Below are positions 9,351 through 59,649 of a stretch of 59,649 nt of DNA, piece by piece. Every line of letters starts with the position of its first letter. Position 1 is the first letter of the stretch. Under the pieces are notes generated by a model, which worked only from the letters and a program-made list of their open reading frames with translations, did not search any database and had not been told where the DNA came from. This stretch comes from Felis catus (Eukaryota), in assembly GCF_018350175.1 (NCBI RefSeq), contig NW_025408533.1:1-59649 (forward strand), in the 5' to 3' direction. The position numbers and the translations under genes were made by a program.

Positions 9351-10284
9351 CTAGGAGGCACTTTCTTTCCCGAGGGCCTTGAACAAAGCCCTCTTCACCT
9401 CCTTGTTTCGCATGCTGTAGATGACGGGGTTGAGCATGGGGGTGAGGACCACGTACAGCACAGGGAGCGCCCGGTCCCGCAAGCCAGAGCACGCAGAGCT
9501 GGGGAGGATGTAGCAGAGGACTGGAGCGATGTAGAAAATGCAGACCACGGTGGTGTGAGCACCACAGGTGGAAAAGGCTTTTCTTCGGCCGTCAGCGGAG
9601 TGAATCCTGAGAATCGCAGCCACAACACGTACACAGGAGATCGCAACCGGGGCACGGGGTGCAAGAGCCACCACGAAACTGAAGACGAACAGGGCAAGCT
9701 CGCTGGCCCACGTGCTTGAGCAAGAGAGTCTGGTCAGTGGAGGGAGGCCACAGGAGAAGTGGGTGATGAGGCGAGGCCCGCAGAACCTCAGTGGAGCTGC
9801 AAGGACGGTGTGGGCGAACGCATCGGCCAAGGCAAGCAGGCGGGAGGTGGAAGCCATTCCTGCCCGGGTCCGTCCGACGGCCCAAGAGGACTAGGTGGTG
9901 CGGTGGCCGGCCGATGGCTGCATAGCGGTCACAGGCCATGGCTGTGAGCAGGAAGCACTCCCAGGGAGCCAGGAAGTGGAGAAAGAAGATCTGGGGAAGA
10001 CAAGCACGATAGGGCACGGTCCGCACTGCTGCCAGCAGGTGTTCCAGCACCTGAGGCCCCGTGCTGGAGATATAGGCAGTGTCCAGCAGTGAGAGGTTGA
10101 CTAAGAAGTCGTACATGGGAGTGTGGAGTCGGGAGTCCATCACAGTAAGGCTGGCAATGCCCAGCCACGCTGTGGACCAGCAGAAAGATCACAAAGAGCA
10201 AGGGCCTCAACTCCTCTGCGTCGGCCAGCCCTTCCAGAAGGAACAGCGACACTCGGGTCTCATTCCCCAGCTGCCCGGAACCAT
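9351..10284 (-). pseudogene. Olfactory receptor pseudogene, class II, OR3-family-like (candidate counterpart of human Xq28 OR3B1P)
   Basis: OR motifs [53 protein letters not shown] spread over several frames (frameshifts). Confidence 0.92.
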
Positions 10285-10814
10285 GCGCAGAAACCTGCAC
10301 CTGTAGAGTCCAACTCAGAGTCAGATGAGGATCCAAGTGTGGAGTTCCAATTTGCACAAGGCAGCAGGGGTGAGGGAAGGTCCAGAGACAACAACAACAA
10401 CAAGAAAAAGAGACAGGTTTCAAGCTTAAGAAAATAAGACTCAGAATTGGGGGAGTGAGGCTAGGTTCAGGAGGCCAGCGGTAAGGTCGAGGCCAGTAGA
10501 ATGGAATCGGTAACCCCACACCAAGACAAGGTGCACAGACCTTGAAGCCACGGTGCATGCACCTCCTGCAAGGATATCAAAGTCGGTCCCTCAGAAGCTT
10601 CTACCTGAATAAGGACCCTAGACCTCGTAATTACCTGCAGTGGTCCCCTTATTTCACCCTCACCAACCCAGCAGAGCCCCAACTCAGGAGCAGTGATAGG
10701 ACACTAGTCAGGTCCCTCCTCCTCCCGCTCTGAACCTTTCAGTGCCTCCCATCTCACTCAGCGTCAAAGCCAAAGTCCCCCCGGCGACCTACCAGGCCCT
10801 CTGTGATACGCTCT

Positions 10815-10860
10815 CCCTCCTCTCCTCTCCTCTCCTCTCCTCTCCTCTCCTCTCCTCTCT
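10815..10860 (+). repeat. (TCTCC)n pentanucleotide microsatellite; one unit longer in the right arm (58344-58395)
   Basis: Direct. Confidence 0.9.
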
Positions 10861-12149
10861 GACCATCGGGCAAGAAGTCTGTCAGCTCCGTGCCCCATAT
10901 CACATCTTCGGACTGGCCCACAGCAGCAAACGCCCTTGCCTATCCCCTGCCTCGGTGGAAGAGAGCCCTGCCCTCCTATCCAAGGCTAGCTTGTCCGATT
11001 TCCCCAGCTGCTCTCTTCATTGTGCCAGCCCTGCTCGGCAACCCTTTTACATGGGAATGTGCTAAATGCCACTCGACTGTTCACTCTCAGATGGTTTATT
11101 TTATGTTATCTCGATTTTACCTCCATGAAAAAAGGAAGCAAAATAAAGACTTTTTCAGACATATAAAAGCTGAGATTAACTCGTTGTCAGCGGAAAACCT
11201 GCACTACAACAAATGTTAAAGGCTGTTCTCCACAAGCAAGGATGATAGCACGTGGGAACTTGGACCTACATGAAGTAATGAAGCGGGTTCCAGAACTGGA
11301 AAGTATGTGGGTAAATGTAAACATTTTTTTCTCCCTTCAAAATGTCTCTCAATCGTCGCAAACCATCTAAAGCAAAATTATTGACAACACGGCGTGGGGT
11401 GTGTAACTGCTATAGAAATAAAAGGTATGACAACAACAGCACAAAGGACACCAGTGGGTGGTTGGAAGGGTACTGCTGTAATGTTCTTACGTTACGTGCG
11501 AAGTGATTTGAAATTACTTGAAGGTGGTCTATAATGAGGTAAAACACATATTAGGATCCCTAGAACCCTAGGGTTAATATGTACACTTCTCTGGCGGAGA
11601 TAAAGTGAATTTCTAGAAATTACTCAATCTGAAAGGAGTCGCGAAAAGACAGAGAGGGGAACGCAGAACACATGGGGCAAACAGAAAATAAATAGCAGGA
11701 TGGTAGATGGAAACTCAACGATACCCCTCGTTACATTTATTCTAAATGGTCTAAACGTGGCAACTAAAACACGGAGATTGCCAGACTGGATAAAAAGGCA
11801 AAGCAAAACTATATGCTACGCGTAAGAAATGTGCTCTATGAAGACACAGATACGGTAAAAGTAAAAAGATGGGCAAAGATACACCATGCAAGTCTTCTAA
11901 TAAGAAAGTTTGAGTAGCTATATTAAGAGCAGGCAGAACAGACTTCAGGACAAGGAATACGATGGGGTGGAGGACGTTTGCTAACGATAGAGGGGTCACT
12001 TTGTGAAGAAGACATAAAATCAAAACCTAAATACACAGTAGGAAAGAAATAATGAAGCTAAGAGGAGATATGAATAAAACGTTAAATGGACAAACAATAG
12101 AGGAAAATCCATGAAGCGGAAAGCCTTTTTTTCCTTTCTTTCTTTTCTG

Positions 12150-12830
12150 TTTTAATGTTTATTTTTGACACAGAGAGAGACAGGGAGCGAGTGGGGGAGG
12201 AGCAAAGAGAGAGGGGGGACACAGAATCCGCAACAGGCTCCAGGCTCCAGGCTCTGAGCCGGCAGCACAGAGTCCGATGCGGGGCTCGAACCGACGGACG
12301 GACCGTGAGATCATGACCTGAGCCGAAGTCAGACCTTTAACCGACTGAGCCACTCAGGCGCCCTCTCCCCCACTTTTTAAAGGTTTTATTCATTTTTGAG
12401 AGAGTGCATGTGGGGGAGGGGCAGGGAGAGGGGGACAGAGGATCTGAAGTGAACTGCGCTGACAGCAGCGAGCCCCATGTGGGGCCTGAACTCACCAACT
12501 GCCAGATCGTGACCTGAGCCAAAGTCGGACGCTCAACCGACTGAGCCACCCAGGTGTCCCTGAAAGCTTCTTTAAAACAAACAAACAAACAAACAAACAA
12601 ACAAAAAACATACCAGGGGCGCCTGGGTGGCTCAGTCGGTTGAGCGACCGACTTCGGCTCAGGTCATGATCTCGCGGTCCGTGAGTTCGAGCCCCGCGTC
12701 GGGCTCTGTGCTGACAGCTCAGAGCCTGGATCCTGTTTCAGATTCTGTGTCTCCCTCTCTCTGACCCTCCCCCGTTCATTCATGCTCTGTCTCTCTCTGT
12801 CGCAAAAATAAATACATGTTAAAAAAATGT
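12150..12830. mobile_element. Cluster of three Can-SINEs: ~12150-12363 (-), ~12375-12560 (-), 12616-12830 (+)
   Basis: Three SINE heads and tails, with (AAAC)n between. Confidence 0.9.
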
Positions 12831-13964
12831 TTTTCTAAAAATACCAATAAAGCTGATTTTGAAAAATAAAGTGTAACCAGGGAATATTAGGAACAATATT
12901 TGTGGGTAAGTTTCCCAATTTAGATGAAATGGACAAATTCCTTGAATGACACAACTTACCAAAACTGACTCAAGAAGAAATAGAAGACCCGAATATCTAT
13001 GAAAGCAATGGAGCCGAAAACTCCAGGCCCCCGTGGCTTTACTAGTGGCTACCTCCAAATACTTAAAGGAGAACTATCACCAATCCTACGCAAATGCTTT
13101 CAGGAAGCAAAGGAGGAGAAACATTTCCCAAATCATCTTATGAGGCCAGCATTACACAACCCCAAAACCAGATGAAGACATTGCAAGAAAAGAAAACCAC
13201 AGGGCAATATCCTTCAGGAAGTCACACACACAAAAGAACTTGATTCGATATTAGCAAATTCAACCCAGCAACATACAAAGAGGATGATACCATCATGGCC
13301 AAGTGGGGTTTATCCCAAGAATTGGTTTTCATTAAAAACAAAAAAGTCAATCAGTGTCATCTGTCATATTAAGAAAATAAAGGAGAAAAAACATGTGATC
13401 ATTTCAACAGACACAGAAAAAAAGCATCAGACAATATCCAACAACCACTCGTGACAAAAACTCTCGGAAAACTAGGACTAGAGGGAAACGTTCTTAATCT
13501 GATAAAGGGAACCTACAAAAATCCTACAGCTAACATGATACTTAATGGTGAAAGATAGAATCACCGCCCCCGCTCCCTCGCCCGCAAAGTTTGAGAAACA
13601 AGGTATGGATGTTCACCACTTCCATTCAACACTGTCCTGGAAATCCTAGGCAGTGCACTAGGCAAGAAAGAGGAATAAAAGTAGTGACACAGATTGCAAA
13701 AAAAGAAAAGGGATTATCTTTATTCAGAGATGACATGCTTGTTTACGTAGAAACCCCTAAGTGATGTACAAAAAAAAGAAGAGTGACATTTTAAAAAATC
13801 ACTACCATTTATAATAGCATCCCCAAACATGAAGTATTTGGGGACACATGTAATAACATATGTGCAAAACCTTTACGGTGAACACTAAAACCTATTGATA
13901 AGTGAAAGAAAGCTTACAAAAATGGAGAAACGCATCCTATGCGTGGAGCGGAAGATCCTGTATT

Positions 13965-14066
13965 CTTTTTTCTTTTAGCGTTTATTTATTTATTTTGGAA
14001 GAGACAGAGAGAGCATGAGCAGGGGAGGGGCAGAGAGAGAGAGAGGGAGCGAGAGAGGGAGGGAGG

Positions 14067-14102
<36 letters not shown>

Positions 14103-14229
14103 CCCAAGCAGGCTCGGAGCTGTCAGTGCACACCCCGACTCTGGGCCCGGTCTCACAAACCGTGAGATCATGACCTGAGCCGTAATCAAGAGTCAGACGC
14201 TTAATCGACTGAGCCACCCAGGTGCCCCA
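13965..14229 (-). mobile_element. Can-SINE
   Basis: Head, (GA)n tract, flanking repeat cctgtattctt. Confidence 0.9.
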
Positions 14230-15404
14230 AGGCCCTGTATTCTTAAGATGTACACTCCCACCACACCATTCTAGAAATTCATTGCAAACCCAGTAAAAAT
14301 CGTGATAACGCAGAAATGGACAAGCTGATTCCAAAGTGTATATCCAAATGCAAAGAACCTGGAATAGGCAGCTCGAACTTGCAAAAGAGGAATAAAGTCG
14401 GGAGACACAGGATGACTAAAAGAGGATACAGACACAATGGAAAGTTCACATGTCACTGGTGGGACTGTAAATTGGTATGATCACATCGGAAAACAGTGCT
14501 TCCGTTTCTTATACAGTCACACTTACGCTTACCATGTGACCCAGAAATCCCACTTCTGCTAGTTACACAAGGGAATTAAAAATATATGTGTGTGCAAAGA
14601 CTTGTACGTGAATCTTCGTATCAACTTGATTAACGATAACCGCAGTTTGGAAACAAGCCAAACGTCCAATAGCAGGTGAGTGGTTAAGCCTAAGTTACGG
14701 TACATCCACGCAATGGAATACCGGTCAGCAACAAAGAAGGATGGACATACTGTGTGATTCCTGGAAATTCCAGAAAAGGCAAAATCTAAGCTGAATTTGC
14801 TGTGTGGGGGCAGACTGTAGAGGAGGACATTGTCTGCACGGAGGCACAAGGGCGACTGTGAGAGCGATGGGAATGTTCTGTATCTCGGCTTTGGCTGTGG
14901 ACACCTTTGTCGTAACTCATGAAACCGTACGCTTAAATGTGTGCAACTTCCCATACGTGCATTTTGCCTCAAATAAGCTGAGCAAAAACAAAAAAAGAGA
15001 GGGGACAAACAAAAACTGAATAGCAAAATGGCAGACTTACATCCGACCATATCGGTAATCGTATTAAATGTGAATTTGCCAAGCAGTCCAATTTAAAAGC
15101 AGACATCGTTAGAAGGGTGCTTTCTTTAAGTGACCAAACTACACGCTGTCTACGTGAGCCACATTCAAGATACAAAGACACCAATAGGTTACAAGTAAGA
15201 GGATGGAAAAGGACTTACGAATAAATAGTGAGCAAAGAAGCCTGATGTGGTTATATCGATATTAGAGAAATCAGACTTCGAGGAAAACTGTGTTACCAAA
15301 GATGAAGGGATGCGTTTCATACTAGTAACAGCAGCAATGAATCCATCTGGAAGAGAAAATGATCATAAATATGTCTGTGCCTAATGACACACCTTCAAAA
15401 TGCA

Positions 15405-15650
15405 CGGGGCGCCTGGGTGACTCAGTCGGTAAGCGTCTGACTTCGGCTCAGGTCATGATGTCACCGTTGGTGAGTTCCAGCCCAGCGTCGGGCTCTCTGC
15501 CCGTCGGCACCGAGCCTGCTTTGGATCCTCTGTCCCCCTCTGTCTCTGCCCCTCCCCCACTGGCTCTCTCTCTCCCCCTCTCTCAAAATAAATAAACTTA
15601 ACACACACGCACACACACACACACGCACGCACGCAGACACACGCGCGATG
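15405..15650 (+). mobile_element. Can-SINE followed by (CA)n
   Basis: ggggcgcctgggtgactcagtcgg head. Confidence 0.9.
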
Positions 15651-16059
15651 CAAGAATTTTTGAGATTAATAGGTGAAAGGGACAAGTCCAAAATCACGGT
15701 TGGAGTTTTTAACATCCTCTCTCAGCAAGCGAGAGAGAGAGACAACACACTCTGTTAAAAGAAATAGAGCAGGGATTGGCAAACTACCGCCTCCTGGCCA
15801 AATCCAGCCCGGGGCCTCTTTTATGTGAAAAGTTTGTTGTCCCCTGACATAGAACATACGATCAGTGGTATCACCTACCTTGACCGATGTCTTTAGAACA
15901 CTAAACAGGAGATCTGAATTTCACATGTGTGTCCACTACACATTGTTTTCAAGTACAAGTATGTTCGCCAAGATAAAGCATTTTCTGAGCCACGGACCAA
16001 TTCTCAACACATTTCAACGTCAAGGATTGAAATTTAACCCGGTACGTCTCTGACCAGCC

Positions 16060-16335
16060 TTGCCTTGTTCTTGATTCTAGAGGGAAAGCTTTCAACCTCT
16101 CACTGTTGCGTATGATGTCAGCTGTGGGTTTTGTCGTATGTGGGCTTTGTGGTATTGAGCTATACAACTTTTCTCTGCCCCCATTCGTGGAGGATTTTTA
16201 TCATGGAAATATGTTCTATTTTGTCAAACGCGTTTTCTGCACCTAGGGAGATGATCATATGGTTTTTATCTTTCATTCTAACGATGCGGTGCTTCGTTTA
16301 TAGACACGCATGTGTTGAAAGATCCTTGTTTTCCG
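16060..16335 (-). mobile_element. Inverted L1 ORF2 fragment
   Basis: ccttgttcttgattctagagggaaagctttc..atgatgtcagctgtggg..gagatgatcatatggttttt. Confidence 0.8.
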
Positions 16336-16640
16336 GCTGCAGGTTCCTCCTGCCCGTGCCCGGAGATGAGAGCTGCCTGCCCCGTAGACAGTGACAAAGA
16401 ACAGGGCAGACAGAGACAGTCCGAGGCTCAGGCTGAGGCGCTCTTTGGTGACACTGCTCATTGAAATGCTTCCACCAGCCACAGGCCGCTCTAGACACTG
16501 GCCACCTTCTTGCTGTGACACCTGCCTCCAGGACAAGGCAGCTGTGCCTTTACTTTCCTCACTTGTCCTGAGGACCTATTCGGAGACGCTCAGGTACAGA
16601 TTCGTGACTATAGAGTCACGGAGTTCTACACAGCTCAGTC
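16296..16640 (+). repeat. 345-bp inverted repeat unit A (pairs with 19158-19502)
   Basis: Reverse complement of 19158-19502 with few mismatches; the same ORF-track peptides appear on opposite strands. Confidence 0.95.
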
Positions 16641-17096
16641 ACGTGCTCAGAGGCTTTAGGAGTTGGGCCATGGCAGTCTGTTTGGGCATGGACAGTGGGG
16701 ACCATGAGCCGCACCACCGTGTGGGGAGTAGTGTCAGGCAGAGGCTTCCTGGATATCGCAGCTGGCGGGCCGTCGAAGGCTCGTGGCACGGCTGGTTCAG
16801 GCAGACGCATCGACGCGGGTGCCCATTTGGGCAGACGCCCTAGGGTGTCGTGGCACTCTAAGGGGTGGAGCTTCATAGGTGAGAACTGATTGGCTACAGA
16901 AGGGACTGCTTGGTGGGAACCAATCACAGGTCAGGAGGCATTACCAGTGGTCCGTGTGGACAGTTGCTCTGGGCATCCGGAATTGCATTGTGGAGTAAAG
17001 GGGTGAAGCATTGTGAGAGAGCGCTTTGTCCTTCAGTGATGCCTTGAGAGGGTGGGCGGATTCAAAGTTGGGTCTCAGGTGGCTGGTGGAGGCCCC

Positions 17097-18253
17097 GTGA
17101 GGGCAGCAGACGAAGGCACGGGTGCCGTGGGCGTGGTGGTGGGCGCAGCAGGTGGTGGCCAGTGTGTGCCAGGTGGACCTCGTGGTGTCAGTGGCCCCAG
17201 AGTCCCTGGTGGTTCGGGTGGTGCCTGTGACCCTGGCCATCCCAGCAACCCCGGAGGCCTGAGCGATCCGGAAAGAACCAGCATTGTGGGAGAGGTAGGT
17301 GCCGCCTCTGGTGGCGCTCTCCAAATGGAGCGGGCACCCTACACACCAGGTCCTGGTGGAGATGCCGCGCCTGGCGCTAGAGGTCCTGGTAACCGACTGC
17401 TTCAGTTGTATCCTATTCAAGGAGTCCCAGCGGGCTGGACGGCAGGGGGATGGGCTGGAGGTGGTCTGGCGCGCGGCGGGGTGGGGTGTGGGGGGGAGAC
17501 TTGGGGAAGTGGAGTTGAAAGGGGAGCAGGAGGGAGCTCCGGGCACCTGGAGGGTATCGGCTAGGGTTTGGCCCGTGCTGACAGAGGATGGGGAGTGGGG
17601 TGGACCGCCTGATGGGACTGAAGCGGTAGGGACAATGCTATCCGGGGTGGCCTGGCTGTATAGGGTGGGAGGTTGTGGACAGCCTGAGGGTCAGCCTGGG
17701 GTGGGGAAGGCAGGCCTCACTGAAGAGGAGGCCTGAGGCACAGGCAAAATTAGTACTGTGGATGGTGCCTTAACCCAGTCTCCACCAGCACCCTCACTAT
17801 ACCTTTCCCCTCGGCCATGGATGCGGAGATTGCCCACAGGTTCCTGACTCCAAACGAGGAGCTCCAGGAGCCAGTTCGGGAGGAGCTCCATGTGAACGGC
17901 AGCATCCTGACTGTGTTAGTTCTAGAACGGTCCAGGGAGAGGGTGGTGGCAGGTGACCAGGGACAAGGTCAATTCCGGAGGAGCTGTAACGGAGACAAGG
18001 GAAACAGGAAAGGAGTGAGTCGAAGGAAGGAGTGTGGTGCTCTAGGATCGTTGCTGTGTGAAGGGGCGGAGCGGGGAATGTGCCCCACCGGCCCTCTAAC
18101 TTGACTTATTTTTTCCTACCTCGTAGCCGCTTGACTGCCGATGACCCTGGCCAGCTCCAAATGTCCATCACCTCCTGTCTTGGCCAGCTTTCCCTAGTGA
18201 TACGGGCCATGCAGATCATCATGCCCCCCTTTTTCACAAAGCCGCAGCAGTGA
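17097..18253 (+). CDS. CTAG-like: CTAG/LAGE3 family copy 2; exons 17097-17407, 17789-17914, 18127-18253; GTG at the ancestral start (187 aa), first in-frame ATG at 17325 (111 aa)
   Basis: ..GARGPGNRLLQF-TLTIPFPSAMDAEIAHRFLTPNEELQEPVREELHVNGSILTV-RLTADDPGQLQMSITSCLGQLSLVIRAMQIIMPPFFTKPQQ*; U12 intron 1 (GTATCCTA, GCCTTAAC at 17767); CCAAT upstream at ~16920. May be a young pseudogene. Confidence 0.82.
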
Positions 18254-19157
18254 AAAGGTGGCTGGACCCAACTCTGTGTCCCCCCCACATGACAGTGATT
18301 CCTGCAGCAGCTGCCGTTTTCTTACTGAGGCCGCATCTTTTGCCTATACTGGCCCTTGGGTGCTTCAGATCCACATTTTTTTTTTTTTTTTTTTTTTTTT
18401 GGTGATCAAATGGTAACTGCTACTATTCTGTGTCTGGGTTTATTTTTAAAGCATCTACGCCTTCTCCTATTCTCGCCTTTGTTCTCAGGTAGGGGGAGAG
18501 ATTCTGACATTCAGATACTCAAGTACTAGAAGGCAATTGAAGAAGACAAGTTAGGCGACGGGAGAAAAAAATTATGTCCTGTTATTCAGGACATTAACTA
18601 CTGTCAACATGTTAGAACTTTTGTTTTAGTTTTATACTAGCATATACATAGTCATGTATAATACCTGCAGAGTAGGACTTTGTGGCTTCTCGGCCTTGAT
18701 TCAGATCTGTGCAGAAGAGCGCTGGGACAGCTGGCTAGGTCGGCCCCACTGCCCATTCTATACTCCCGTGTCATCAGAGGCCTCATTCCCTGAGGTTCCG
18801 AACCCACAATTCTCAGAGCTCCTTGTGGTTGGCTCTCACTTGTATCATCCTTCCCCAAAGTGTTTTTCCAGTTTATTACGCTGCTGCTTGCTTCCCTGAA
18901 GTCCTGACAAGGGTCCTGGAGGAAAACAAAAAGGGGAAGAGGTCTCCCTGAGGTGGGGAGGGGACATGAAGTACATTACCCTTTGCCTTCCCCTCCAAGA
19001 CTCTCTTATTTAGCACAACAGTGGGGCCACGTACAAGGCACCCGAGTGGCTGAGGAGGGGAATGGGCGACGCCCCGGTGCACGAGGTGAGTCTCTAAATC
19101 GGAGAGAGGAGGAACAGAGCCTTGCCTGAGGGAGAATTAGCAGTGTCAGCAGAGAGA

Positions 19158-19502
19158 GACTGAGCAGTGGAGAACGCCGTGACTCTATAGTTACGAATCT
19201 GTACCTGAGCGTCTCCAAATAGGTCCTCAGGACAAGTGAGGAAAGTAAAGGCACAGCTGCCTTGTCCTGGAGGCAGGTGTCACAGCAAGAAGGTGGCCAG
19301 TGTCTAGAGCGGCCTGTGGCTGGTGGAAGCATTTCAATGAGCAGTGTCACCAAAGAGCGCCTCAGCCTGAGCCTCGGACTGTCTCTGTCTGCCCTGTTCT
19401 TTGTCACTGCCTACGGGGCAGGCAGCTCTCATCTCCGGGCACGGGCAGGAGGAACCTGCAGCCGGAAAACAAGGATCTTTCAACACGTGCACGTCTATAA
19501 AC
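19158..19502 (-). repeat. 345-bp inverted repeat unit B
   Basis: See 16296-16640. Confidence 0.95.
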
Positions 19503-19590
19503 CCCGCCCTCGGCCGCCTCTCCAGCAGCTGCTGCCTCTCCAGCGGCTGCTCCCTCACCAATCGTCGCCACGCGCTGTGACGCGTGACCC
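19490..19590 (-). promoter_or_regulatory. Candidate core promoter (CCAAT, GC box, TATA-like) pointing into repeat unit B
   Basis: Minus strand reads gattgg..gagggcggggtttatagac. Confidence 0.35.
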
Positions 19591-20304
19591 CACTGCACCC
19601 ACGCAAACCAGTCCCACCTCAGCTCCACCCCCTCCCCACACCCCTAGCCCCTCCCCAGACCTCGTGGGAGGCCGCCAGGCACCACGGCCTGTTGTCCAGA
19701 GGGCCCTGCCTCTTCCTTGGGCTCAGTGTCCCCAGCACGTGGGGCTCCACGACCTCGCAGCGGTTCGTGGAGGGAGATGGGCCACAGCCCAGACGGACAC
19801 GGCCCCGCACCCCGTCCCCTTCCCCGGTACCGGTGGACACACCACAGCGGCCTTTGGAGGGGGCGACTGAGCACAGGTGCGGATCAGATCGGCGGTCTGG
19901 GAAGGTCACGAAGGGGCTCCCGTCGGGGGGCAAGCCTGCCAGTAGCAGGCAAGGAGGGAAGGGATGGCGACTGGAGCTAAAGTAGTTAGTGGCCACGGAG
20001 AACAGGGATGCGGTCGCATAGGGAAAAACCACAGTGCAAAAGGGAAATCACTAAAATCCCAACTTAGGAAGCTACTGTATATGTGCACGGAAATCCTGCC
20101 ACGGTAGCCTGAAGTGTAAACACCTCGTATGTCTGTGTGGTGGGATTGAGGGTGGTCCCCACTTCTTTTGTGTGCATTTCTCCCCCAAAAGGTTCAGAAT
20201 GACTTTACATGACCTTTGGTGTTTTCAATTCTTTGACATCCTTGTGTGCGTGATCTCTACGCCCCACGTGGTGCGGCACTCACGACCCAGTGAGTGCTTC
20301 CACA

Positions 20305-22240: not shown

Positions 22241-22317
22241 CCTGCCAGGGGTCTCAGCGGTCGGCCGACAGTGGGCGCAGCGTAGCGGTGGGCTCTGAGG
22301 AGGCCGGTGCGGCGGCC

Positions 22318-44421: not shown

Positions 44422-44453
<32 letters not shown>

Positions 44454-46884: not shown

Positions 46885-47798
46885 GGCCGCCGCACCGGCC
46901 TCCTCAGAGCCCACCGCTACGCTGCGCCCACTGTCGGCCGACCGCTGAGACCCCTGGCAGGCCTCGCGAAGCCCGGCCCCTCGGCGCGCAAGGCTGTCGG
47001 GGATGGCCAGGGCGCCTGCGCAGACAGACCCCGCGGAGCTGGTTGCCACCGAGCCGGCAGAGCCTGGATCCGGTCGACGCTGACCCCGAGGAGATGGAGG
47101 CTGGTTCCGGACGCTGCGCCCCCCGACGCGTGACGTCACTGTCGGGCTCCTACGTCCCCGAGAGCATTCTGGTGAGGCCACTGGCACGTGACTGTTTCCG
47201 GCCCGGCCCGCCCCTCCCCCCAAGCCTGTGTCTGCGCAGGCGCCAGCCGGGCGCACTTGCCAGCAGCCAGCTGACCGCCGCCCGCCCGGTCCCGGGCATC
47301 GAGGCGTGGGCCGCGCTCAGGCGCTTCTGGGCAGCACCGTGCCTGTCCCTGTCTGTGGGCTCCCCGTACGGCTCGGGTCTGCGTGTCCCGGGGGCCCTGC
47401 GACCCGGGGGCCGGGGGGGGGGGCCTACGCGGGATGCCGAGCAGGGGCCACTCCCAGGCCCTGCCTGTCCTCAGGGAGCACACCCCGCACGGCCCCTAGG
47501 GGAGCTGGAAGGGATGGGCCTGGCTCCCTCACCATTTGTCGGTCCCGGGCGCCGTCAGTCCCCTAGTGCCTGCCAGCCTGGGGGAGGGTACACCGCCGAG
47601 GGCGCGACCGGCCTCCGGCCGGGGGCTCCCGGGCTCCTGCCTCCCACTGCAATGGCTGTGGGCTTGGGCCGGGGGCCCAGGGGGGCCCACCTGGACTTGA
47701 GGGCAGCGGCTCGGGGGAGCACCGCCCCGGCGACAGCTCCCCGGTCGCTTTGCCCTCTGCTGCGGCAGCCCTGACGGGCTGTCCCCCCCTCCCCCCAG

Positions 47799-48895: not shown

Positions 48896-49697
48896 TGTGG
48901 AAGCACTCACTGGGTCGTGAGTGCCGCACCACGTGGGGCGTAGAGATCACGCACACAAGGATGTCAAAGAATTGAAAACACCAAAGGTCATGTAAAGTCA
49001 TTCTGAACCTTTTGGGGGAGAAATGCACACAAAAGAAGTGGGGACCACCCTCAATCCCACCACACAGACATACGAGGTGTTTACACTTCAGGCTACCGTG
49101 GCAGGATTTCCGTGCACATATACAGTAGCTTCCTAAGTTGGGATTTTAGTGATTTCCCTTTTGCACTGTGGTTTTTCCCTATGCGACCGCATCCCTGTTC
49201 TCCGTGGCCACTAACTACTTTAGCTCCAGTCGCCATCCCTTTCCTCCTTGCCTGCTACTGGCAGGCTTGCCCCCCGACGGGAGCCCCTTCGTGACCTTCC
49301 CAGACCGCCGATCTGATCCGCACCTGTGCTCAGTCGCCCCCTCCAAAGGCCGCTTTGGTGTGTCCACCGGTACCGGGGAAGGGGACGGGGTGCGGGGCCG
49401 TGTCCGTCTGGGCTGTGGCCCATCTCCCTCCACGAACCGCTGCGAGGTCGTGGAGCCCCACGTGCTGGGGACACTGAGCCCAAGGAAGAGGCAGGGCCCT
49501 CTGGACAACAGGCCGTGGTGCCTGGCGGCCTCCCACGAGGTCTGGGGAGGGGCTAGGGGTGTGGGGAGGGGGTGGAGCTGAGGTGGGACTGGTTTGCGTG
49601 GGTGCAGTGGGGTCACGCGTCACAGCGCGTGGCGACGATTGGTGAGGGAGCAGCCGCTGGAGAGGCAGCAGCTGCTGGAGAGGCGGCCGAGGGCGGG

Positions 49698-50042
49698 GTT
49701 TATAGACGTGCACGTGTTGAAAGATCCTTGTTTTCCGGCTGCAGGTTCCTCCTGCCCGTGCCCGGAGATGAGAGCTGCCTGCCCCGTAGGCAGTGACAAA
49801 GAACAGGGCAGACAGAGACAGTCCGAGGCTCAGGCTGAGGCGCTCTTTGGTGACACTGCTCATTGAAATGCTTCCACCAGCCACAGGCCGCTCTAGACAC
49901 TGGCCACCTTCTTGCTGTGACACCTGCCTCCAGGACAAGGCAGCTGTGCCTTTACTTTCCTCACTTGTCCTGAGGACCTATTTGGAGACGCTCAGGTACA
50001 GATTCGTAACTATAGAGTCACGGCGTTCTCCACTGCTCAGTC
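49698..50042 (+). repeat. 345-bp unit B' (mirror)
   Basis: Direct repeat of 16296-16640. Confidence 0.95.
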
Positions 50043-50948
50043 TCTCTCTGCTGACACTGCTAATTCTCCCTCAGGCAAGGCTCTGTTCCTCCTCTCTCCG
50101 ATTTAGAGACTCACCTCGTGCACCGGGGCGTCGCCCATTCCCCTCCTCAGCCACTCGGGTGCCTTGTACGTGGCCCCACTGTTGTGCTAAATAAGAGAGT
50201 CTTGGAGGGGAAGGCAAAGGGTAATGTACTTCATGTCCCCTCCCCACCTCAGGGAGACCTCTTCCCCTTTTTGTTTTCCTCCAGGACCCTTGTCAGGACT
50301 TCAGGGAAGCAAGCAGCAGCGTAATAAACTGGAAAAACACTTTGGGGAAGGATGATACAAGTGAGAGCCAACCACAAGGAGCTCTGAGAATTGTGGGTTC
50401 GGAACCTCAGGGAATGAGGCCTCTGATGACACGGGAGTATAGAATGGGCAGTGGGGCCGACCTAGCCAGCTGTCCCAGCGCTCTTCTGCACAGATCTGAA
50501 TCAAGGCCGAGAAGCCACAAAGTCCTACTCTGCAGGTATTATACATGACTATGTACATGCTAGTATAAAACTAAAACAAAAGTTCTAACATGTTGACAGT
50601 AGTTAATGTCCTGAATAACAGGACATAATTTTTTTCTCCCGTCGCCTAACTTGTCTTCTTCAATTGCCTTCTAGTACTTGAGTATCTGAATGTCAGAATC
50701 TCTCCCCCTACCTGAGAACAAAGGCGAGAATAGGAGAAGGCGTAGATGCTTTAAAAATAAACCCAGACACAGAATAGTAGCAGTTACCATTTGATCACCA
50801 AAAAAAAAAAAAAAAAAAAAAAAAAATGTGGATCTGAAGCACCCAAGGGCCAGTATAGGCAAAAGATGCGGCCTCAGTAAGAAAACGGCAGCTGCTGCAG
50901 GAATCACTGTCATGTGGGGGGGACACAGAGTTGGGTCCAGCCACCTTT

Positions 50949-52105
50949 TCACTGCTGCGGCTTTGTGAAAAAGGGGGGCATGATGATCTGCATGGCCCGT
51001 ATCACTAGGGAAAGCTGGCCAAGACAGGAGGTGATGGACATTTGGAGCTGGCCAGGGTCATCGGCAGTCAAGCGGCTACGAGGTAGGAAAAAATAAGTCA
51101 AGTTAGAGGGCCGGTGGGGCACATTCCCCGCTCCGCCCCTTCACACAGCAACGATCCTAGAGCACCACACTCCTTCCTTCGACTCACTCCTTTCCTGTTT
51201 CCCTTGTCTCCGTTACAGCTCCTCCGGAATTGACCTTGTCCCTGGTCACCTGCCACCACCCTCTCCCTGGACCGTTCTAGAACTAACACAGTCAGGATGC
51301 TGCCGTTCACATGGAGCTCCTCCCGAACTGGCTCCTGGAGCTCCTCGTTTGGAGTCAGGAACCTGTGGGCAATCTCCGCATCCATGGCCGAGGGGAAAGG
51401 TATAGTGAGGGTGCTGGTGGAGACTGGGTTAAGGCACCATCCACAGTACTAATTTTGCCTGTGCCTCAGGCCTCCTCTTCAGTGAGGCCTGCCTTCCCCA
51501 CCCCAGGCTGACCCTCAGGCTGTCCACAACCTCCCACCCTATACAGCCAGGCCACCCCGGATAGCATTGTCCCTACCGCTTCAGTCCCATCAGGCGGTCC
51601 ACCCCACTCCCCATCCTCTGTCAGCACGGGCCAAACCCTAGCCGATACCCTCCAGGTGCCCGGAGCTCCCTCCTGCTCCCCTTTCAACTCCACTTCCCCA
51701 AGTCTCCCCCCCACACCCCACCCCGCCGCGCGCCAGACCACCTCCAGCCCATCCCCCTGCCGTCCAGCCCGCTGGGACTCCTTGAATAGGATACAACTGA
51801 AGCAGTCGGTTACCAGGACCTCTAGCGCCAGGCGCGGCATCTCCACCAGGACCTGGTGTGTAGGGTGCCCGCTCCATTTGGAGAGCGCCACCAGAGGCGG
51901 CACCTACCTCTCCCACAATGCTGGTTCTTTCCGGATCGCTCAGGCCTCCGGGGTTGCTGGGATGGCCAGGGTCACAGGCACCACCCGAACCACCAGGGAC
52001 TCTGGGGCCACTGACACCACGAGGTCCACCTGGCACACACTGGCCACCACCTGCTGCGCCCACCACCACGCCCACGGCACCCGTGCCTTCGTCTGCTGCC
52101 CTCAC
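50949..52105 (-). CDS. CTAG-like: CTAG/LAGE3 family copy 2' (mirror); exons 51795-52105, 51288-51413, 50949-51075; GTG start or ATG at 51877
   Basis: Exons appear identical to copy 2. Confidence 0.82.
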
Positions 52106-52561
52106 GGGGCCTCCACCAGCCACCTGAGACCCAACTTTGAATCCGCCCACCCTCTCAAGGCATCACTGAAGGACAAAGCGCTCTCTCACAATGCTTCACC
52201 CCTTTACTCCACAATGCAATTCCGGATGCCCAGAGCAACTGTCCACACGGACCACTGGTAATGCCTCCTGACCTGTGATTGGTTCCCACCAAGCAGTCCC
52301 TTCTGTAGCCAATCAGTTCTCACCTATGAAGCTCCACCCCTTAGAGTGCCACGACACCCTAGGGCGTCTGCCCAAATGGGCACCCGCGTCGATGCGTCTG
52401 CCTGAACCAGCCGTGCCACGAGCCTTCGACGGCCCGCCAGCTGCGATATCCAGGAAGCCTCTGCCTGACACTACTCCCCACACGGTGGTGCGGCTCATGG
52501 TCCCCACTGTCCATGCCCAAACAGACTGCCATGGCCCAACTCCTAAAGCCTCTGAGCACGT

Positions 52562-52906
52562 GACTGAGCTGTGTAGAACTCCGTGACTCTATAGTCACGA
52601 ATCTGTACCTGAGCGTCTCCGAATAGGTCCTCAGGACAAGTGAGGAAAGTAAAGGCACAGCTGCCTTGTCCTGGAGGCAGGTGTCACAGCAAGAAGGTGG
52701 CCAGTGTCTAGAGCGGCCTGTGGCTGGTGGAAGCATTTCAATGAGCAGTGTCACCAAAGAGCGCCTCAGCCTGAGCCTCGGACTGTCTCTGTCTGCCCTG
52801 TTCTTTGTCACTGTCTACGGGGCAGGCAGCTCTCATCTCCGGGCACGGGCAGGAGGAACCTGCAGCCGGAAAACAAGGATCTTTCAACACATGCGTGTCT
52901 ATAAAC
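52562..52906 (-). repeat. 345-bp unit A' (mirror)
   Basis: Inverted relative to 49698-50042. Confidence 0.95.
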
Positions 52907-55099
52907 GAAGCACCGCATCGTTAGAATGAAAGATAAAAACCATATGATCATCTCCCTAGGTGCAGAAAACGCATTTGACAAAATAGAACATATTTCCATG
53001 ATAAAAACCCTCCACGAATGGGGGCAGAGAAAAGTTGTATAGCTCAATACCACAAAGCCCACATACGACAAAACCCACAGCTGACATCATACGCAACAGT
53101 GAGAGGTTGAAAGCTTTCCCTCTAGAATCAAGAACAAGGCAAGGCTGGTCAGAGACGTACCGGGTTAAATTTCAATCCTTGACGTTGAAATGTGTTGAGA
53201 ATTGGTCCGTGGCTCAGAAAATGCTTTATCTTGGCGAACATACTTGTACTTGAAAACAATGTGTAGTGGACACACATGTGAAATTCAGATCTCCTGTTTA
53301 GTGTTCTAAAGACATCGGTCAAGGTAGGTGATACCACTGATCGTATGTTCTATGTCGGGGGACAACAAACTTTTCACATAAAAGAGGCCCCGGGCTGGAT
53401 TTGGCCAGGAGGCGGTAGTTTGCCAATCCCTGCTCTATTTCTTTTAACAGAGTGTGTTGTCTCTCTCTCTCGCTTGCTGAGAGAGGATGTTAAAAACTCC
53501 AACCGTGATTTTGGACTTGTCCCTTTCACCTATTAATCTCAAAAATTCTTGCATCGCGCGTGTGTCTGCGTGCGTGCGTGTGTGTGTGTGTGCGTGTGTG
53601 TTAAGTTTATTTATTTTGAGAGAGGGGGAGAGAGAGAGCCAGTGGGGGAGGGGCAGAGACAGAGGGGGACAGAGGATCCAAAGCAGGCTCGGTGCCGACG
53701 GGCAGAGAGCCCGACGCTGGGCTGGAACTCACCAACGGTGACATCATGACCCGAGCCGAAGTCAGACGCTTACCGACTGAGTCACCCAGGCGCCCCGTGC
53801 ATTTTGAAGGTGTGTCATTAGGCACAGACATATTTATGATCATTTTCTCTTCCAGATGGATTCATTGCTGCTGTTACTAGTATGAAACGCATCCCTTCAT
53901 CTTTGGTAACACAGTTTTCCTCGAAGTCTGATTTCTCTAATATCGATATAACCACATCAGGCTTCTTTGCTCACTATTTATTCGTAAGTCCTTTTCCATC
54001 CTCTTACTTCTAACCTATTGGTGTCTTTGTATCTTGAATGTGGCTCACGTAGACAGCGTGTAGTTTGGTCACTTAAAGAAAGCACCCTTCTAACGATGTC
54101 TGCTTTTAAATTGGACTGTTTGGCAAACTCACATTTAATACGATTACCGATATGGTCGGATGTAAGTCTGCCATTTTGCTATTCAGTTTTTGTTTGTCCC
54201 TTCTCTTTTTTTGTTTTTGCTCAGCTTATTTGAGGCAAAATGCACGTATGGGAAGTTGCACACATTTAAGCGTACGGTTTCATGAGTTACGACAAAGGTG
54301 TCCACAGCCAAAGCCGAGATACAGAACATTCCCATCGCTCTCACAGTCGCCCTTGTGCCTCCGTGCAGACAATGTCCTCCTCTACAGTCTGCCCCCACAC
54401 AGCAAATTCAGCTTAGATTTTGCCTTTTCTGGAATTTCCAGGAATCACACAGTATGTCCATCCTTCTTTGTTGCTGACCGGTATTCCATTGCGTGGATGT
54501 ACCGTAACTTAGGCTTAACCACTCACCTGCTATTGGACGTTTGGCTTGTTTCCAAACTGCGGTTATTGTTAATCAAGTTGATACGAAGATTCACGTACAA
54601 GTCTTTGCACACACATATATTTTTAATTCCCTTGTGTAACTAGCAGAAGTGGGATTTCTGGGTCACATGGTAAGCGTAAGTGTGACTGTATAAGAAACGG
54701 AAGCACTGTTTTCCGATGTGATCATACCAATTTACAGTCCCACCAGTGACATGTGAACTTTCCATTGTGTCTGTATCCTCTTTTAGTCATCCTGTGTCTC
54801 CCGACTTTATTCCTCTTTTGCAAGTTCGAGCTGCCTATTCCAGGTTCTTTGCATTTGGATATACACTTTGGAATCAGCTTGTCCATTTCTGCGTTATCAC
54901 GATTTTTACTGGGTTTGCAATGAATTTCTAGAATGGTGTGGTGGGAGTGTACATCTTAAGAATACAGGGCCTTGGGGCACCTGGGTGGCTCAGTCGATTA
55001 AGCGTCTGACTCTTGATTACGGCTCAGGTCATGATCTCACGGTTTGTGAGACCGGGCCCAGAGTCGGGGTGTGCACTGACAGCTCCGAGCTTGCTTGGG

Positions 55100-55137
<38 letters not shown>

Positions 55138-58075
55138 CCTCCCTCCCTCTCTCGCTCCCTCTCTCTCTCTCTGCCCCTCCCCTGCTCATGCTCTCTCTGT
55201 CTCTTCCAAAATAAATAAATAAACGCTAAAAGAAAAAAGAATACAGGATCTTCCGCTCCACGCATAGGATGCGTTTCTCCATTTTTGTAAGCTTTCTTTC
55301 ACTTATCAATAGGTTTTAGTGTTCACCGTAAAGGTTTTGCACATATGTTATTACATGTGTCCCCAAATACTTCATGTTTGGGGATGCTATTATAAATGGT
55401 AGTGATTTTTTAAAATGTCACTCTTCTTTTTTTTGTACATCACTTAGGGGTTTCTACGTAAACAAGCATGTCATCTCTGAATAAAGATAATCCCTTTTCT
55501 TTTTTTGCAATCTGTGTCACTACTTTTATTCCTCTTTCTTGCCTAGTGCACTGCCTAGGATTTCCAGGACAGTGTTGAATGGAAGTGGTGAACATCCATA
55601 CCTTGTTTCTCAAACTTTGCGGGCGAGGGAGCGGGGGCGGTGATTCTATCTTTCACCATTAAGTATCATGTTAGCTGTAGGATTTTTGTAGGTTCCCTTT
55701 ATCAGATTAAGAACGTTTCCCTCTAGTCCTAGTTTTCCGAGAGTTTTTGTCACGAGTGGTTGTTGGATATTGTCTGATGCTTTTTTTCTGTGTCTGTTGA
55801 AATGATCACATGTTTTTTCTCCTTCATTTTCTTATTATGACAGATGACACTGATTGACTTTTTTGTTTTTAATGAAAACCAATTCTTGGGATAAACCCCA
55901 CTTGGCCATGATGGTATCATCCTCTTTGTATGTTGCTGGGTTGAATTTGCTAATATCGAATCAAGTTCTTTTGTGTGTGTGACTTCCTGAAGGATATTGC
56001 CCTGTGGTTTACTTTTCTTGCAATGTCTTCATCTGGTTTTGGGGTTGTGTAATGCTGGCCTCATAAGATGATTTGGGAAATGTTTCTCCTCCTTTGCTTC
56101 CTGAAAGCATTTGCGTAGGAGTGGTGATAGTTCTCCTTTAAGTATTTGGAGGTAGCCACTAGTAAACCCACGGGGGCCTGGAGTTTTTGGCTCCATTGCT
56201 TTCATAGATGTAGGGATATTCGGGTCTTCTATTTCTTCTTGAGTCAGTTTTGGTAAGTTGTGTCATTCAAGGAATTTGTCCATTTCATCTAAATTGGGAA
56301 ACTTACCCACAAATATTGTTCCTAATATTCCCTGGTTACACTTTATTTTTCAAAATCAGCTTTATTGGTATTTTTAGAAAAACATTTTTTTAACATGTAT
56401 TTATTTTTGCGACAGAGACAGAGCATGAATGAACAGGGGAGGGTCAGAGAGAGGGAGACACAGAATCTGAAACAGGATCCAGGCTCTGAGCTGTCAGCAC
56501 AGAGCCCGACGCGGGGCTCGAACTCACGGACCGCGAGATCATGACCTGAGCCGAAGTCGGTCGCTCAACCGACTGAGCCACCCAGGCGCCCCTGGTATGT
56601 TTTTTGTTTGTTTGTTTGTTTGTTTGTTTTAAAGAAGCTTTCAGGGACACCTGGGTGGCTCAGTCCGTTGAGCGTCCGACTTTGGCTCAGGTCACGATCT
56701 GGCAGTTGGTGAGTTCAGGCCCCACATGGGGCTCGCTGCTGTCAGCGCAGTTCACTTCAGATCCTCTGTCCCCCTCTCCCTGCCCCTCCCCCACATGCAC
56801 TCTCTCAAAAATGAATAAAACCTTTAAAAAGTGGGGGAGAGGGCGCCTGAGTGGCTCAGTCGGTTAAAGGTCTGACTTCGGCTCAGGTCATGATCTCACG
56901 GTCCGTCCGTCGGTTCGAGCCCCGCATCGGACTCTGTGCTGCCGGCTCAGAGCCTGGAGCCTGGAGCCTGTTGCGGATTCTGTGTCCCCCCTCTCTCTTT
57001 GCTCCTCCCCCACTCGCTCCCTGTCTCTCTCTGTGTCAAAAATAAACATTAAAACAGAAAAGAAAGAAAGGAAAAAAAGGCTTTCCGCTTCATGGATTTT
57101 CCTCTATTGTTTGTCCATTTAACGTTTTATTCATATCTCCTCTTAGCTTCATTATTTCTTTCCTACTGTGTATTTAGGTTTTGATTTTATGTCTTCTTCA
57201 CAAAGTGACCCCTCTATCGTTAGCAAACGTCCTCCACCCCATCGTATTCCTTGTCCTGAAGTCTGTTCTGCCTGCTCTTAATATAGCTACTCAAACTTTC
57301 TTATTAGAAGACTTGCATGGTGTATCTTTGCCCATCTTTTTACTTTTACCGTATCTGTGTCTTCATAGAGCACATTTCTTACGCGTAGCATATAGTTTTG
57401 CTTTGCCTTTTTATCCAGTCTGGCAATCTCCGTGTTTTAGTTGCCACGTTTAGACCATTTAGAATAAATGTAACGAGGGGTATCGTTGAGTTTCCATCTA
57501 CCATCCTGCTATTTATTTTCTGTTTGCCCCATGTGTTCTGCGTTCCCCTCTCTGTCTTTTCGCGACTCCTTTCAGATTGAGTAATTTCTAGAAATTCACT
57601 TTATCTCCGCCAGAGAAGTGTACATATTAACCCTAGGGTTCTAGGGATCCTAATATGTGTTTTACCTCATTATAGACCACCTTCAAGTAATTTCAAATCA
57701 CTTCGCACGTAACGTAAGAACATTACAGCAGTACCCTTCCAACCACCCACTGGTGTCCTTTGTGCTGTTGTTGTCATACCTTTTATTTCTATAGCAGTTA
57801 CACACCCCACGCCGTGTTGTCAATAATTTTGCTTTAGATGGTTTGCGACGATTGAGAGACATTTTGAAGGGAGAAAAAAATGTTTACATTTACCCACATA
57901 CTTTCCAGTTCTGGAACCCGCTTCATTACTTCATGTAGGTCCAAGTTCCCACGTGCTATCATCCTTGCTTGTGGAGAACAGCCTTTAACATTTGTTGTAG
58001 TGCAGGTTTTCCGCTGACAACGAGTTAATCTCAGCTTTTATATGTCTGAAAAAGTCTTTATTTTGCTTCCTTTTT
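52900..58075 (-). mobile_element. Mirror of the old L1 block, with Can-SINEs at ~53600-53797, 54973-55240, 56385-56591, 56644-56830 and 56841-57055
   Basis: Reverse complement of 11130-16300. Confidence 0.85.
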
Positions 58076-58924
58076 TCATGGAGGTAAAATCGAGATAACA
58101 TAAAATAAACCATCTGAGAGTGAACAGTCGAGTGGCATTTAGCACATTCCCATGTAAAAGGGTTGCCGAGCAGGGCTGGCACAATGAAGAGAGCAGCTGG
58201 GGAAATCGGACAAGCTAGCCTTGGATAGGAGGGCAGGGCTCTCTTCCACCGAGGCAGGGGATAGGCAAGGGCGTTTGCTGCTGTGGGCCAGTCCGAAGAT
58301 GTGATATGGGGCACGGAGCTGACAGACTTCTTGCCCGATGGTCAGAGAGGAGAGGAGAGGAGAGGAGAGGAGAGGAGAGGAGAGGAGAGGAGGGAGAGCG
58401 TATCACAGAGGGCCTGGTAGGTCGCCGGGGGGACTTTGGCTTTGACGCTGAGTGAGATGGGAGGCACTGAAAGGTTCAGAGCGGGAGGAGGAGGGACCTG
58501 ACTAGTGTCCTATCACTGCTCCTGAGTTGGGGCTCTGCTGGGTTGGTGAGGGTGAAATAAGGGGACCACTGCAGGTAATTACGAGGTCTAGGGTCCTTAT
58601 TCAGGTAGAAGCTTCTGAGGGACCGACTTTGATATCCTTGCAGGAGGTGCATGCACCGTGGCTTCAAGGTCTGTGCACCTTGTCTTGGTGTGGGGTTACC
58701 GATTCCATTCTACTGGCCTCGACCTTACCGCTGGCCTCCTGAACCTAGCCTCACTCCCCCAATTCTGAGTCTTATTTTCTTAAGCTTGAAACCTGTCTCT
58801 TTTTCTTGTTGTTGTTGTTGTCTCTGGACCTTCCCTCACCCCTGCTGCCTTGTGCAAATTGGAACTCCACACTTGGATCCTCATCTGACTCTGAGTTGGA
58901 CTCTACAGGTGCAGGTTTCTGCGC

Positions 58925-59649
58925 ATGGTTCCGGGCAGCTGGGGAATGAGACCCGAGTGTCGCTGTTCCTTCTGGAAGGGCTGGCCGACGCAGAGGAGTT
59001 GAGGCCCTTGCTCTTTGTGATCTTTCTGCTGGTCCACAGCGTGGCTGGGCATTGCCAGCCTTACTGTGATGGACTCCCGACTCCACACTCCCATGTACGA
59101 CTTCTTAGTCAACCTCTCACTGCTGGACACTGCCTATATCTCCAGCACGGGGCCTCAGGTGCTGGAACACCTGCTGGCAGCAGTGCGGACCGTGCCCTAT
59201 CGTGCTTGTCTTCCCCAGATCTTCTTTCTCCACTTCCTGGCTCCCTGGGAGTGCTTCCTGCTCACAGCCATGGCCTGTGACCGCTATGCAGCCATCGGCC
59301 GGCCACCGCACCACCTAGTCCTCTTGGGCCGTCGGACGGACCCGGGCAGGAATGGCTTCCACCTCCCGCCTGCTTGCCTTGGCCGATGCGTTCGCCCACA
59401 CCGTCCTTGCAGCTCCACTGAGGTTCTGCGGGCCTCGCCTCATCACCCACTTCTCCTGTGGCCTCCCTCCACTGACCAGACTCTCTTGCTCAAGCACGTG
59501 GGCCAGCGAGCTTGCCCTGTTCGTCTTCAGTTTCGTGGTGGCTCTTGCACCCCGTGCCCCGGTTGCGATCTCCTGTGTACGTGTTGTGGCTGCGATTCTC
59601 AGGATTCACTCCGCTGACGGCCGAAGAAAAGCCTTTTCCACCTGTGGTG
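58925..59649 (+). pseudogene. Mirror OR3-family olfactory receptor pseudogene, cut by the window end
   Basis: Same frameshifted motifs as 9560-10284. Confidence 0.92.

Follow-up and report, generated by a model that had tools for sequence, protein, structure and literature searches.

The window that we analysed, a stretch of 59,649 nucleotides of Felis catus DNA (contig NW_025408533.1), contains near-identical inverted arms, which belong to an X-chromosomal array of multi-copy testis-antigen genes. Self-BLAST of the whole window gave a single long inverted alignment, 9560-28313 against 59649-40894, of 18,803 columns at 98.7%. Over the 18,031 bp of the arm core (9560-27590) the two arms differ by 36 substitutions, which is an identity of 99.80%, and by nine indel events that mostly fall within simple repeats; transitions make up 27 of the 36 substitutions, and 14 are at CpG. 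The near-identity stops at 27752/41435 and leaves 13.68 kb in between, so the arms of at least 18 kb and the spacer of about 13.7 kb that were described in the earlier note are real features of the sequence. The 18.0 kb per arm is a minimum, since the right arm runs off the window and the outer end cannot be placed. About 2.2 kb of the 13.68-kb interval is a G-rich minisatellite that is present at both inner ends, and as 123 bp of the left one align at 98% to the interior of the right one, the left one is a shorter, rearranged relative of the right one.

Large X palindromes have been defined by arms longer than 8 kb and an arm identity above 99% (Jackson 2021), and the values found here are at least 18.0 kb and 99.80%. 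The X location is indicated indirectly, by a 127.8-Mb F. catus contig on which identical proteins are annotated and by a gene content as in the published X table. Arm genes with a testis-biased expression are usual in such palindromes and are no requirement. A singleton palindrome has exactly two arms and a single-copy spacer, which is not what we found, because L2 and S are represented by multiple accessions and the tiger has at least four L2 loci.

Six three-exon genes were modelled (Table 1), and all six have canonical splice sites and open frames. That there are two genes of the CTAG/LAGE3 type in each arm and another in the spacer had been noticed before, and the three-exon models, the Pcc1 domain and the matches to LAGE3 bear it out. 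Pcc1 (PF09341) was found by Pfam in exons of G0, L1 and L2, and for each of the four types the felid orthologues hit human LAGE3 (6gwj_B) in PDB with E values of 1e-16 or better. In RefSeq the label CTAG1-like is given to G0 and S, and LAGE3-like to L1 and L2; the arm genes are LAGE3-like paralogues, and G0 lies to the left of the arm shown. F. catus model P0023 is the same, residue for residue, as the 111-aa frame that opens at the internal Met77 of L1, and two further F. catus models end in exactly the L2 sequence. No F. catus model of S was found among the matches listed, where the closest are from lynx, cheetah and fishing cat. G0 is outside the interval of the earlier note and is probably part of the repeat unit. 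That note had overlooked both G0 and the larger SLC6A8 partial copy to the left of its starting point, as well as the missing ATG at the ancestral start of both arm genes and the 345-bp inverted repeat around L1.

Table 1. Positions of genes, gene pieces and repeats in the 59,649-nucleotide window
Feature	Position	Strand	Remarks
SLC6A8 duplicate, 5'-truncated	1..2907	-	seven exon pieces; continues beyond window start
G0	3714..4831	+	ATG start, 186 aa; equals F. catus cancer/testis antigen 1-like P0090 (186/186)
Olfactory receptor (OR) pseudogene	9354..10270	-	frameshifted; crosses the left edge first given for the arm; mate about 58939-59649 (+)
Left arm, minimum extent	9560..27752	+	outer end set only by mate leaving window
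Nested 345-bp inverted repeat	16296..19502	unstranded	16296-16640 and 19158-19502, 97.4%; flanks L1
L1, LAGE3-like	17097..18253	+	three exons; GTG at ancestral start
SLC6A8 fragment upstream of L2	20296..22027	-	two exon pieces and sequence upstream of G0
L2, LAGE3-like	22318..23457	+	three exons, 218 codons open; ACG start, Met in other felids
PLXNA3 last coding exon, left-arm copy	27251..27346	-	by coordinate mapping
G-rich minisatellite, left inner boundary	27590..28330	-	~37-bp unit, ~0.74 kb; 9 relaxed G4 motifs
Spacer	27753..41434	unstranded	13.68 kb between near-identical parts; unique part ~11.8 kb, about 28330-40085
S, spacer gene	31581..32680	+	ATG start, 178 aa; orthologues in other felids named cancer/testis antigen 1-like
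COX4 retrocopy, broken	34337..34774	-	in spacer; by Pfam scan
G-rich minisatellite, right inner boundary	40085..41570	+	~1.48 kb; 23 relaxed G4 motifs
Right arm	41435..59649	-	cut by window end
PLXNA3 last coding exon	41840..41935	+	followed by 3' UTR-like sequence; by PDB search
R2, copy of L2	45745..46884	-	coding sequence identical
SLC6A8 fragment, right-arm copy	47175..48904	+	
Nested 345-bp repeat, right-arm mirror	49698-50042 and 52562-52906		around R1
R1, copy of L1	50949..52105	-	coding sequence identical

The arms had also been said to contain pieces of an OR gene, SLC6A8 and PLXNA3, and the Pfam and PDB searches agree with that. The Pfam scan covered positions 1-42300, where it took in 428 stop-free frames of 55 aa or longer, and three exons in addition. 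It found a frameshifted OR at 9354-10188 and SNF pieces at 1-2907 and 20228-21426, which a PDB search identifies as the creatine transporter SLC6A8. By self-BLAST, the fragment upstream of L2 is a copy of 1766-3545 and is 91.6% identical to this flank copy. The OR pseudogene is presumably linked to human OR3B1P, a name that was not found in the papers listed by a literature search, and the ESM Atlas returned only generic names for its subfamily. The PLXNA3 exon is visibly decayed and was missed by the Pfam scan. Its stop codon and R2/L2 are placed tail to tail about 3.8 kb apart, and the tabulated distance between PLXNA3 and LAGE3, taken from the annotated gene end, is 4.1 kb in human and 4.6 kb in pig (PMC8327908). 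This similar spacing, together with the decay of the exon, suggests that the PLXNA3 piece arrived with L2; if it is that old it gives no argument for a cat-specific origin of the arms. The SLC6A8 piece is catalogued as a duplication of the cat lineage. Some other candidates were discarded. Rfam gave no matches in its search, and the tRNA calls made by ARAGORN were rejected as parts of what we take to be tRNA-derived SINEs. Pfam hits below the cut-off (Sec23 zinc finger, 7tm_2, kinase, Atrophin-1, DUF3915 and MASE8) were rejected as chance.

A cat SLC6A8-like locus has been placed at 129.14-129.30 Mb between IKBKG and GAB3, with a PLXNA3 model that extends to 129,230,860 (Brashear 2021, PMC8327908). 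Four cat amplicon segments of 21.3, 37.4, 29.1 and 27.0 kb, with at least 99% identity, are tabulated in the interval, and the wider region bears the number 12 among the ancestral ampliconic regions of human, cat and mouse (PMC8327908). Cat region 12 (felCat9 X:129.17-129.30 Mb) resembles the window in its SLC6A8-like gene, in a PLXNA3 model that reaches into it, and in BAC transcripts from close by that hit OR3A3-like and CTAG1-like sequences (PMC8327908). The window is thus very probably the published cat region 12 locus, judging from its sequence content, and neither IKBKG nor GAB3 is within it. The sizes of the published segments are also similar to what is seen in the window. A BAC near the cat locus gave OR3A3-like and CTAG1-like transcripts, and one CTAG1-like BAC transcript, which is not assigned to a particular gene, is given with mixed testis values, FPKM 135.9 and 16.2, and with 3.9-27.4 elsewhere (PMC8327908). 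What the text and tables on region 12 do not describe is the orientation, the four paralogue types and the start-codon changes (PMC8327908). Our literature search, which mostly covered non-subscription papers, found no account of how the felid array is oriented, of which paralogues it consists or of its start-codon sweep, and there was nothing on the locus in the accessible parts of PMC11216403, PMC8662614, PMC7204298, PMC12663436, PMC10656420 and PMC13616518. The amplicon is already catalogued and of a known kind, and the new angles are a hotspot in four lineages and a cat-specific start-codon sweep. Both the general phenomenon and the ampliconic status of the locus were known beforehand, which limits the surprise. 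Bredemeyer 2023 may include the region among felid inversions.

No family of the IKBKG type was found by Pfam in the 428 frames of at least 55 aa, a scan in which some short real exons are missed. As it was blind to exon 3 of S, exon 2 of L2 and the PLXNA3 exon, short decayed IKBKG exons may escape it as well. The cat IKBKG gene ends 61 kb ahead of the first amplicon segment in the published coordinates (PMC8327908), which is in line with the earlier observation that the arms hold no recognisable IKBKG.

The phylogenetic tree was built from 64 rows, 60 named database proteins and the four window proteins, over 100 columns. It excludes partial models, hits without a name and most of the redundant isoforms, and it has neither human CTAG1/2 nor a true LAGE3. 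Proteins of deer, tamandua, alpaca and sea lion fall into the clade of L1 (support 92/89), and those of camel, a bat and canids into that of S (100/100). The L2 clade has mouse lemur, rhino, horse, desman and many carnivores (100/99), and the G0 clade has camel, a bat and warthog with a weak support of 85/85. All four clades have members outside the felids, and the paralogues are therefore far older than cats. The genes listed between IKBKG and GAB3 are CTAG1A/B/CTAG2 in human, OR and LAGE3-like genes in pig, and Ctag2-like genes and Olfr1325 in mouse; only CTAG is listed in human, and the OR in the interval is marked as ancestral (PMC8327908). A CTAG cluster with an OR is thus ancestral at the locus, and the claim that the family had been newly placed here does not hold. 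The strict form of that idea, in which the family was moved or copied to a new locus and then independently became palindromic, could appeal to arms with SLC6A8 and PLXNA3 pieces from elsewhere on distal X and to IKBKG not being detected. We consider it largely refuted, with hardly any probability left, by the age of the paralogues, the position of the cat SLC6A8-like locus between IKBKG and GAB3, and the presence of CTAG/LAGE3-like genes in this interval in human, pig and mouse and of OR genes in pig and mouse (PMC8327908). The OR has long belonged to the cluster, as probably has the PLXNA3 piece, and neither bears on whether the origin was independent.

The number of copies does not fit a single palindrome. 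In the tiger, a single contig carries at least four L2 loci, each of them with the isoforms X1-X3. Among the matches listed, F. catus has at least four accessions of G0, at least four of L1 and at least seven of L2, counted as accessions and not as loci. S has at least four accessions (again not loci) in each of fishing cat, leopard and bobcat, and several accessions of at least one of the four genes are found in clouded leopard, leopard cat, fishing cat, Geoffroy's cat and leopard. Since each gene type is represented in multiple felids by several accessions of identical sequence, the window is probably two units of a larger array. The simplest reading would be a unit of about 28 kb, with the SLC6A8 partial copy, G0, OR, L1, L2 and the PLXNA3 exon, that is repeated at least four times. 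Such a unit size is consistent with the published segment sizes. Of the palindrome proposed earlier, the inverted arms stand, and its status as a stand-alone structure probably does not, because of the several accessions per gene and the tiger L2 loci; the structure is probably part of a multi-unit array.

A large inverted duplicate could also arise as an assembly artefact, if two alleles or a fold-back read were joined. There are two runs of N in the window (8836-8967 and 29953-30120), the second one within the spacer, and the arm divergence of 0.2% falls in the allelic range, both of which would fit such an error. On the other hand, the left arm agrees with F. catus model P0080 and the right arm with P0079 at 144 of 144 residues each, and each model differs from the opposite arm at four residues. 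Both arm haplotypes are thus annotated as separate genes, although the F. catus models and the window may share one source assembly, and the models would then count for less as independent evidence. In addition, multiple copies are found in several felid assemblies, the minisatellite content differs between the two inner ends, and four segments are given in the published cat amplicon table (PMC8327908). We therefore regard an artefact as very improbable.

The genes differ in their start codons: at the ancestral start position G0 and S have Met, L1/R1 have GTG and L2/R2 have ACG. L1 has GTG where tamandua has Met, and all felid L1 models, as well as one from sea lion, begin at an internal Met and retain the whole domain, so translation of L1 probably begins at Met77, as far as the sequences allow us to say. 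The named L2 models have Thr at the start in seven of seven from F. catus and Met in 20 of 20 from eight other felids; two unnamed rows were dropped from this count, and the site is not covered by a rearranged leopard model or by a lynx model of 77 aa, which starts from an internal Met. The lineage of the domestic cat split from Prionailurus about 6 My ago, and the distribution places the change after that split and in every annotated cat copy. The next two ATGs in L2 are out of frame and the first one in frame lies inside the Pcc1 domain, and RefSeq predicts an upstream exon near 21666. The cat L2 is thus either disabled, started at ACG, or started from the upstream exon. The non-ATG start weakens the case for L2 as an intact gene, and does not affect its membership of the CTAG/LAGE3 family.

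Certain residues are species-specific and common to the accessions of that species, e.g. A97 in cat L1, four residues in cat G0 and two in tiger L2. These, together with the uniform Thr of cat L2, indirectly support a homogenisation between copies, as had been assumed from the start, and either gene conversion or repeated re-amplification may explain it. The L2 pattern points to a start-codon change that may have been homogenised across the cat copies. The differences between the arms are clustered (dispersion p about 2e-4, also without the densest cluster), which is consistent with patchy conversion. The longest arm stretch free of differences, 2,978 bp, is not significant (p 0.054). A cluster of eight substitutions at 20549-20887 was considered as the result of conversion from the SLC6A8 copy in the flank, and this was rejected as only three of the eight sites match.

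In human, the corresponding structure is P25, which has 35-kb arms with IKBKG and CTAG1 and a spacer of 22 kb and is present in macaque too (Jackson 2021, PMC8327919). P25 and the cat repeat share the interval, inverted arms of more than 99% identity, CTAG-family genes and a similar scale. The arms of P25 have IKBKG exons and ATF4 retrocopies and occur once as they are described (PMC8327919), whereas the cat arms, with L1, L2 and pieces of OR, SLC6A8 and PLXNA3, apparently belong to a larger array. The position between IKBKG and GAB3 is the same according to the published coordinates, and no IKBKG exons were detected in the cat arms. Since IKBKG is outside the cat segments, the two sets of arms differ, and their gene content supports that the cat arms are not orthologous to those of P25. 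The suggestion that the cat structure arose independently of the human CTAG1A/B repeat is hence right about the arms and less so about the site, which is the same orthologous interval with an ancestral cluster.

Inverted repeats in this interval are not restricted to cat and human. Palindrome B of the mouse is also located between Ikbkg and Gab3 and has the Ctag2-like Gm6890 between its segments, and it differs from the cat in that its arms carry Gm5640/Gm5936 and no Ctag genes (Kruger 2018, PMC5997626). Its spacer is printed as 11.7 kb (PMC5997626), against 115 kb implied by the coordinates in PMC8327908. Xq-region2 of the Okinawa spiny rat, Tokudaia muenninki, is described as an inverted duplication of about 300 kb between Ikbkg and Gab3, like the cat in its position and unlike it in the inserted Y-derived Zfy and Tspy (PMC12104558). 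The FLNA-EMD repeat (P24) resembles the cat interval in that many mammals have inverted repeats there, at one and the same position of the X, whose arms are not orthologous, and shared versus repeated origin is likewise debated there; P24 flanks broadly expressed single-copy genes, whereas in the cat the arms themselves hold the multi-copy family (PMC8327919).

We find it rather likely that the window holds two adjacent inverted units of a felid ampliconic array, and that inverted repeats have been re-formed independently at an orthologous hotspot between IKBKG and GAB3. The main alternative is a single palindrome that has persisted in the interval since the boreoeutherian ancestor while its arms were turned over, which would be a shared origin and not convergence. 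Inverted or ampliconic repeats in the interval in human and macaque, mouse, spiny rat and cats would be expected from it, the region is classed as ancestral (PMC8327908), and some canid L2-type proteins have two accessions. Primate palindromes also show a fast turnover of spacers and inner arms, with 7 of 12 lacking human-macaque spacer orthology (PMC8327919). Against it, the contents of the arms, as far as they are listed, differ by lineage, IKBKG is outside the cat segments, no amplicon is listed for the interval in pig (PMC8327908), and the human duplication is dated to apes (PMC13587735), although P25 is reported from macaque in PMC8327919. The inverted repeats of mouse and spiny rat in the same interval hold genes different from those of the cat, which speaks for a repeated origin, as does the pig. 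The persisting palindrome is to us the less probable explanation, with a real but minor chance, and repeated origin at one hotspot, which we take to be about twice as likely, is favoured.

Under repeated origin, the cat structure could have formed on an old placental cluster with at least four LAGE3-derived paralogues and an OR, where L2 probably came together with the 3' end of PLXNA3. In the cat lineage an SLC6A8 fragment would have been added beside G0 and later partly recopied beside L2, where the pieces are now found. A block of about 28 kb would then have been amplified in inverted form before the felid radiation, in which the multi-copy state is seen from the accessions, and the G-rich minisatellite in which the inner junction lies may have had a causal role. 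Gene conversion or copy turnover would since have kept the copies near-identical within each species, and it is not unreasonable that the same process spread the ATG-to-ACG change of L2 through the copies of the domestic cat. We propose that the inverted repeats have been retained by selection because they carry genes that are putatively expressed in the germ line.

A bolder and, in our opinion, doubtful idea is that IKBKG-GAB3 is a second site of the FLNA-EMD kind, with an inverted repeat that has surrounded the CTAG cluster continuously for about 90 million years, arm sequence replaced completely in each lineage, and the start-codon change of L2 swept through the cat copies. If this is true, the site captured IKBKG exons in primates, Gm5640 in mouse, Y genes in spiny rat and the SLC6A8/PLXNA3 pieces in cats, and the cat L2 would be a case of gene conversion that fixes a gene-disabling, or start-shifting, mutation across an ampliconic family.

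The spacer was predicted earlier to be an inversion polymorphism, which is a plausible event, and several inversions would be possible in a multi-unit array. Inversions are reported to recur more often on sex chromosomes and where the repeats are long relative to the inverted length, and HsInv0830 is there linked to the NEMO/LAGE2 paper (PMC7263195). The locus is a carnivore counterpart to human P25 in a group where many species have been sequenced, and lets recurrence of X palindromes at fixed positions be tested directly against persistence with changing arms. It also addresses whether conversion between copies purges or spreads damaging mutations, for which the cat-specific ACG of L2 is a ready marker. 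In practical work there is a risk of confusion between paralogues, both in variant calls from short reads near cat IKBKG-GAB3 and in matches to SLC6A8 and the 3' end of PLXNA3.

For L2, the second LAGE3-like gene of the left arm, where cat has ACG in the start position, the RefSeq cat models lengthen the gene upstream by way of a predicted exon at 21666-21960, within the segment derived from SLC6A8 and the CTAG1-like gene G0, and this exon, as modelled, could be the source of a new ATG. The Canada lynx model of L2 begins at an internal Met, and bobcat models of the CTAG1-like spacer gene S have Leu where the start Met is usual (database proteins P0068, P0038 and P0103 make up this lynx L2 and bobcat S set). 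The CTAG/LAGE3 family may have lost its start codon repeatedly.

L1, the first left-arm gene, is enclosed by an inverted repeat that takes in no other gene, and because of this the resulting 2.5-kb cassette could flip independently. The observed/expected CpG ratio near the L1 start (16900-17500) comes to 0.50, compared with values of 0.81-0.88 at G0, L2 and S, which suggests a CpG island that has decayed.

Features in and around the arms
Feature	Position	Remarks
Inverted repeat around L1	16296-16640 and 19158-19502	345 bp, 97.4%; mirrored at 49698-50042 and 52562-52906
Broken COX4 retrocopy	34337-34774	in spacer
N run	8836-8967	132 bases; a short way left of the olfactory receptor pseudogene
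N run	29953-30120	168 bases; in spacer, adjoining TAGA repeat

Eight of the 36 differences between the arms are packed into 340 bp of the arm SLC6A8 fragment (20549-20887); three agree with the flank copy and five disagree, possibly reflecting conversion from a third copy beyond the window. The flank SLC6A8 gene is 5'-truncated and stands head to head with G0. The first SLC6A8 exon of this flank copy (2811-2907) holds a long G/C run, shorter in the arm copy, and the frame of the exon appears broken.

The COX4 retrocopy might serve as a tag by which to count copies of the spacer among felids. PMC5997626 gives the mouse Gm5640 palindrome a spacer of 11.7 kb, whereas the coordinates listed in PMC8327908 imply about 115 kb.
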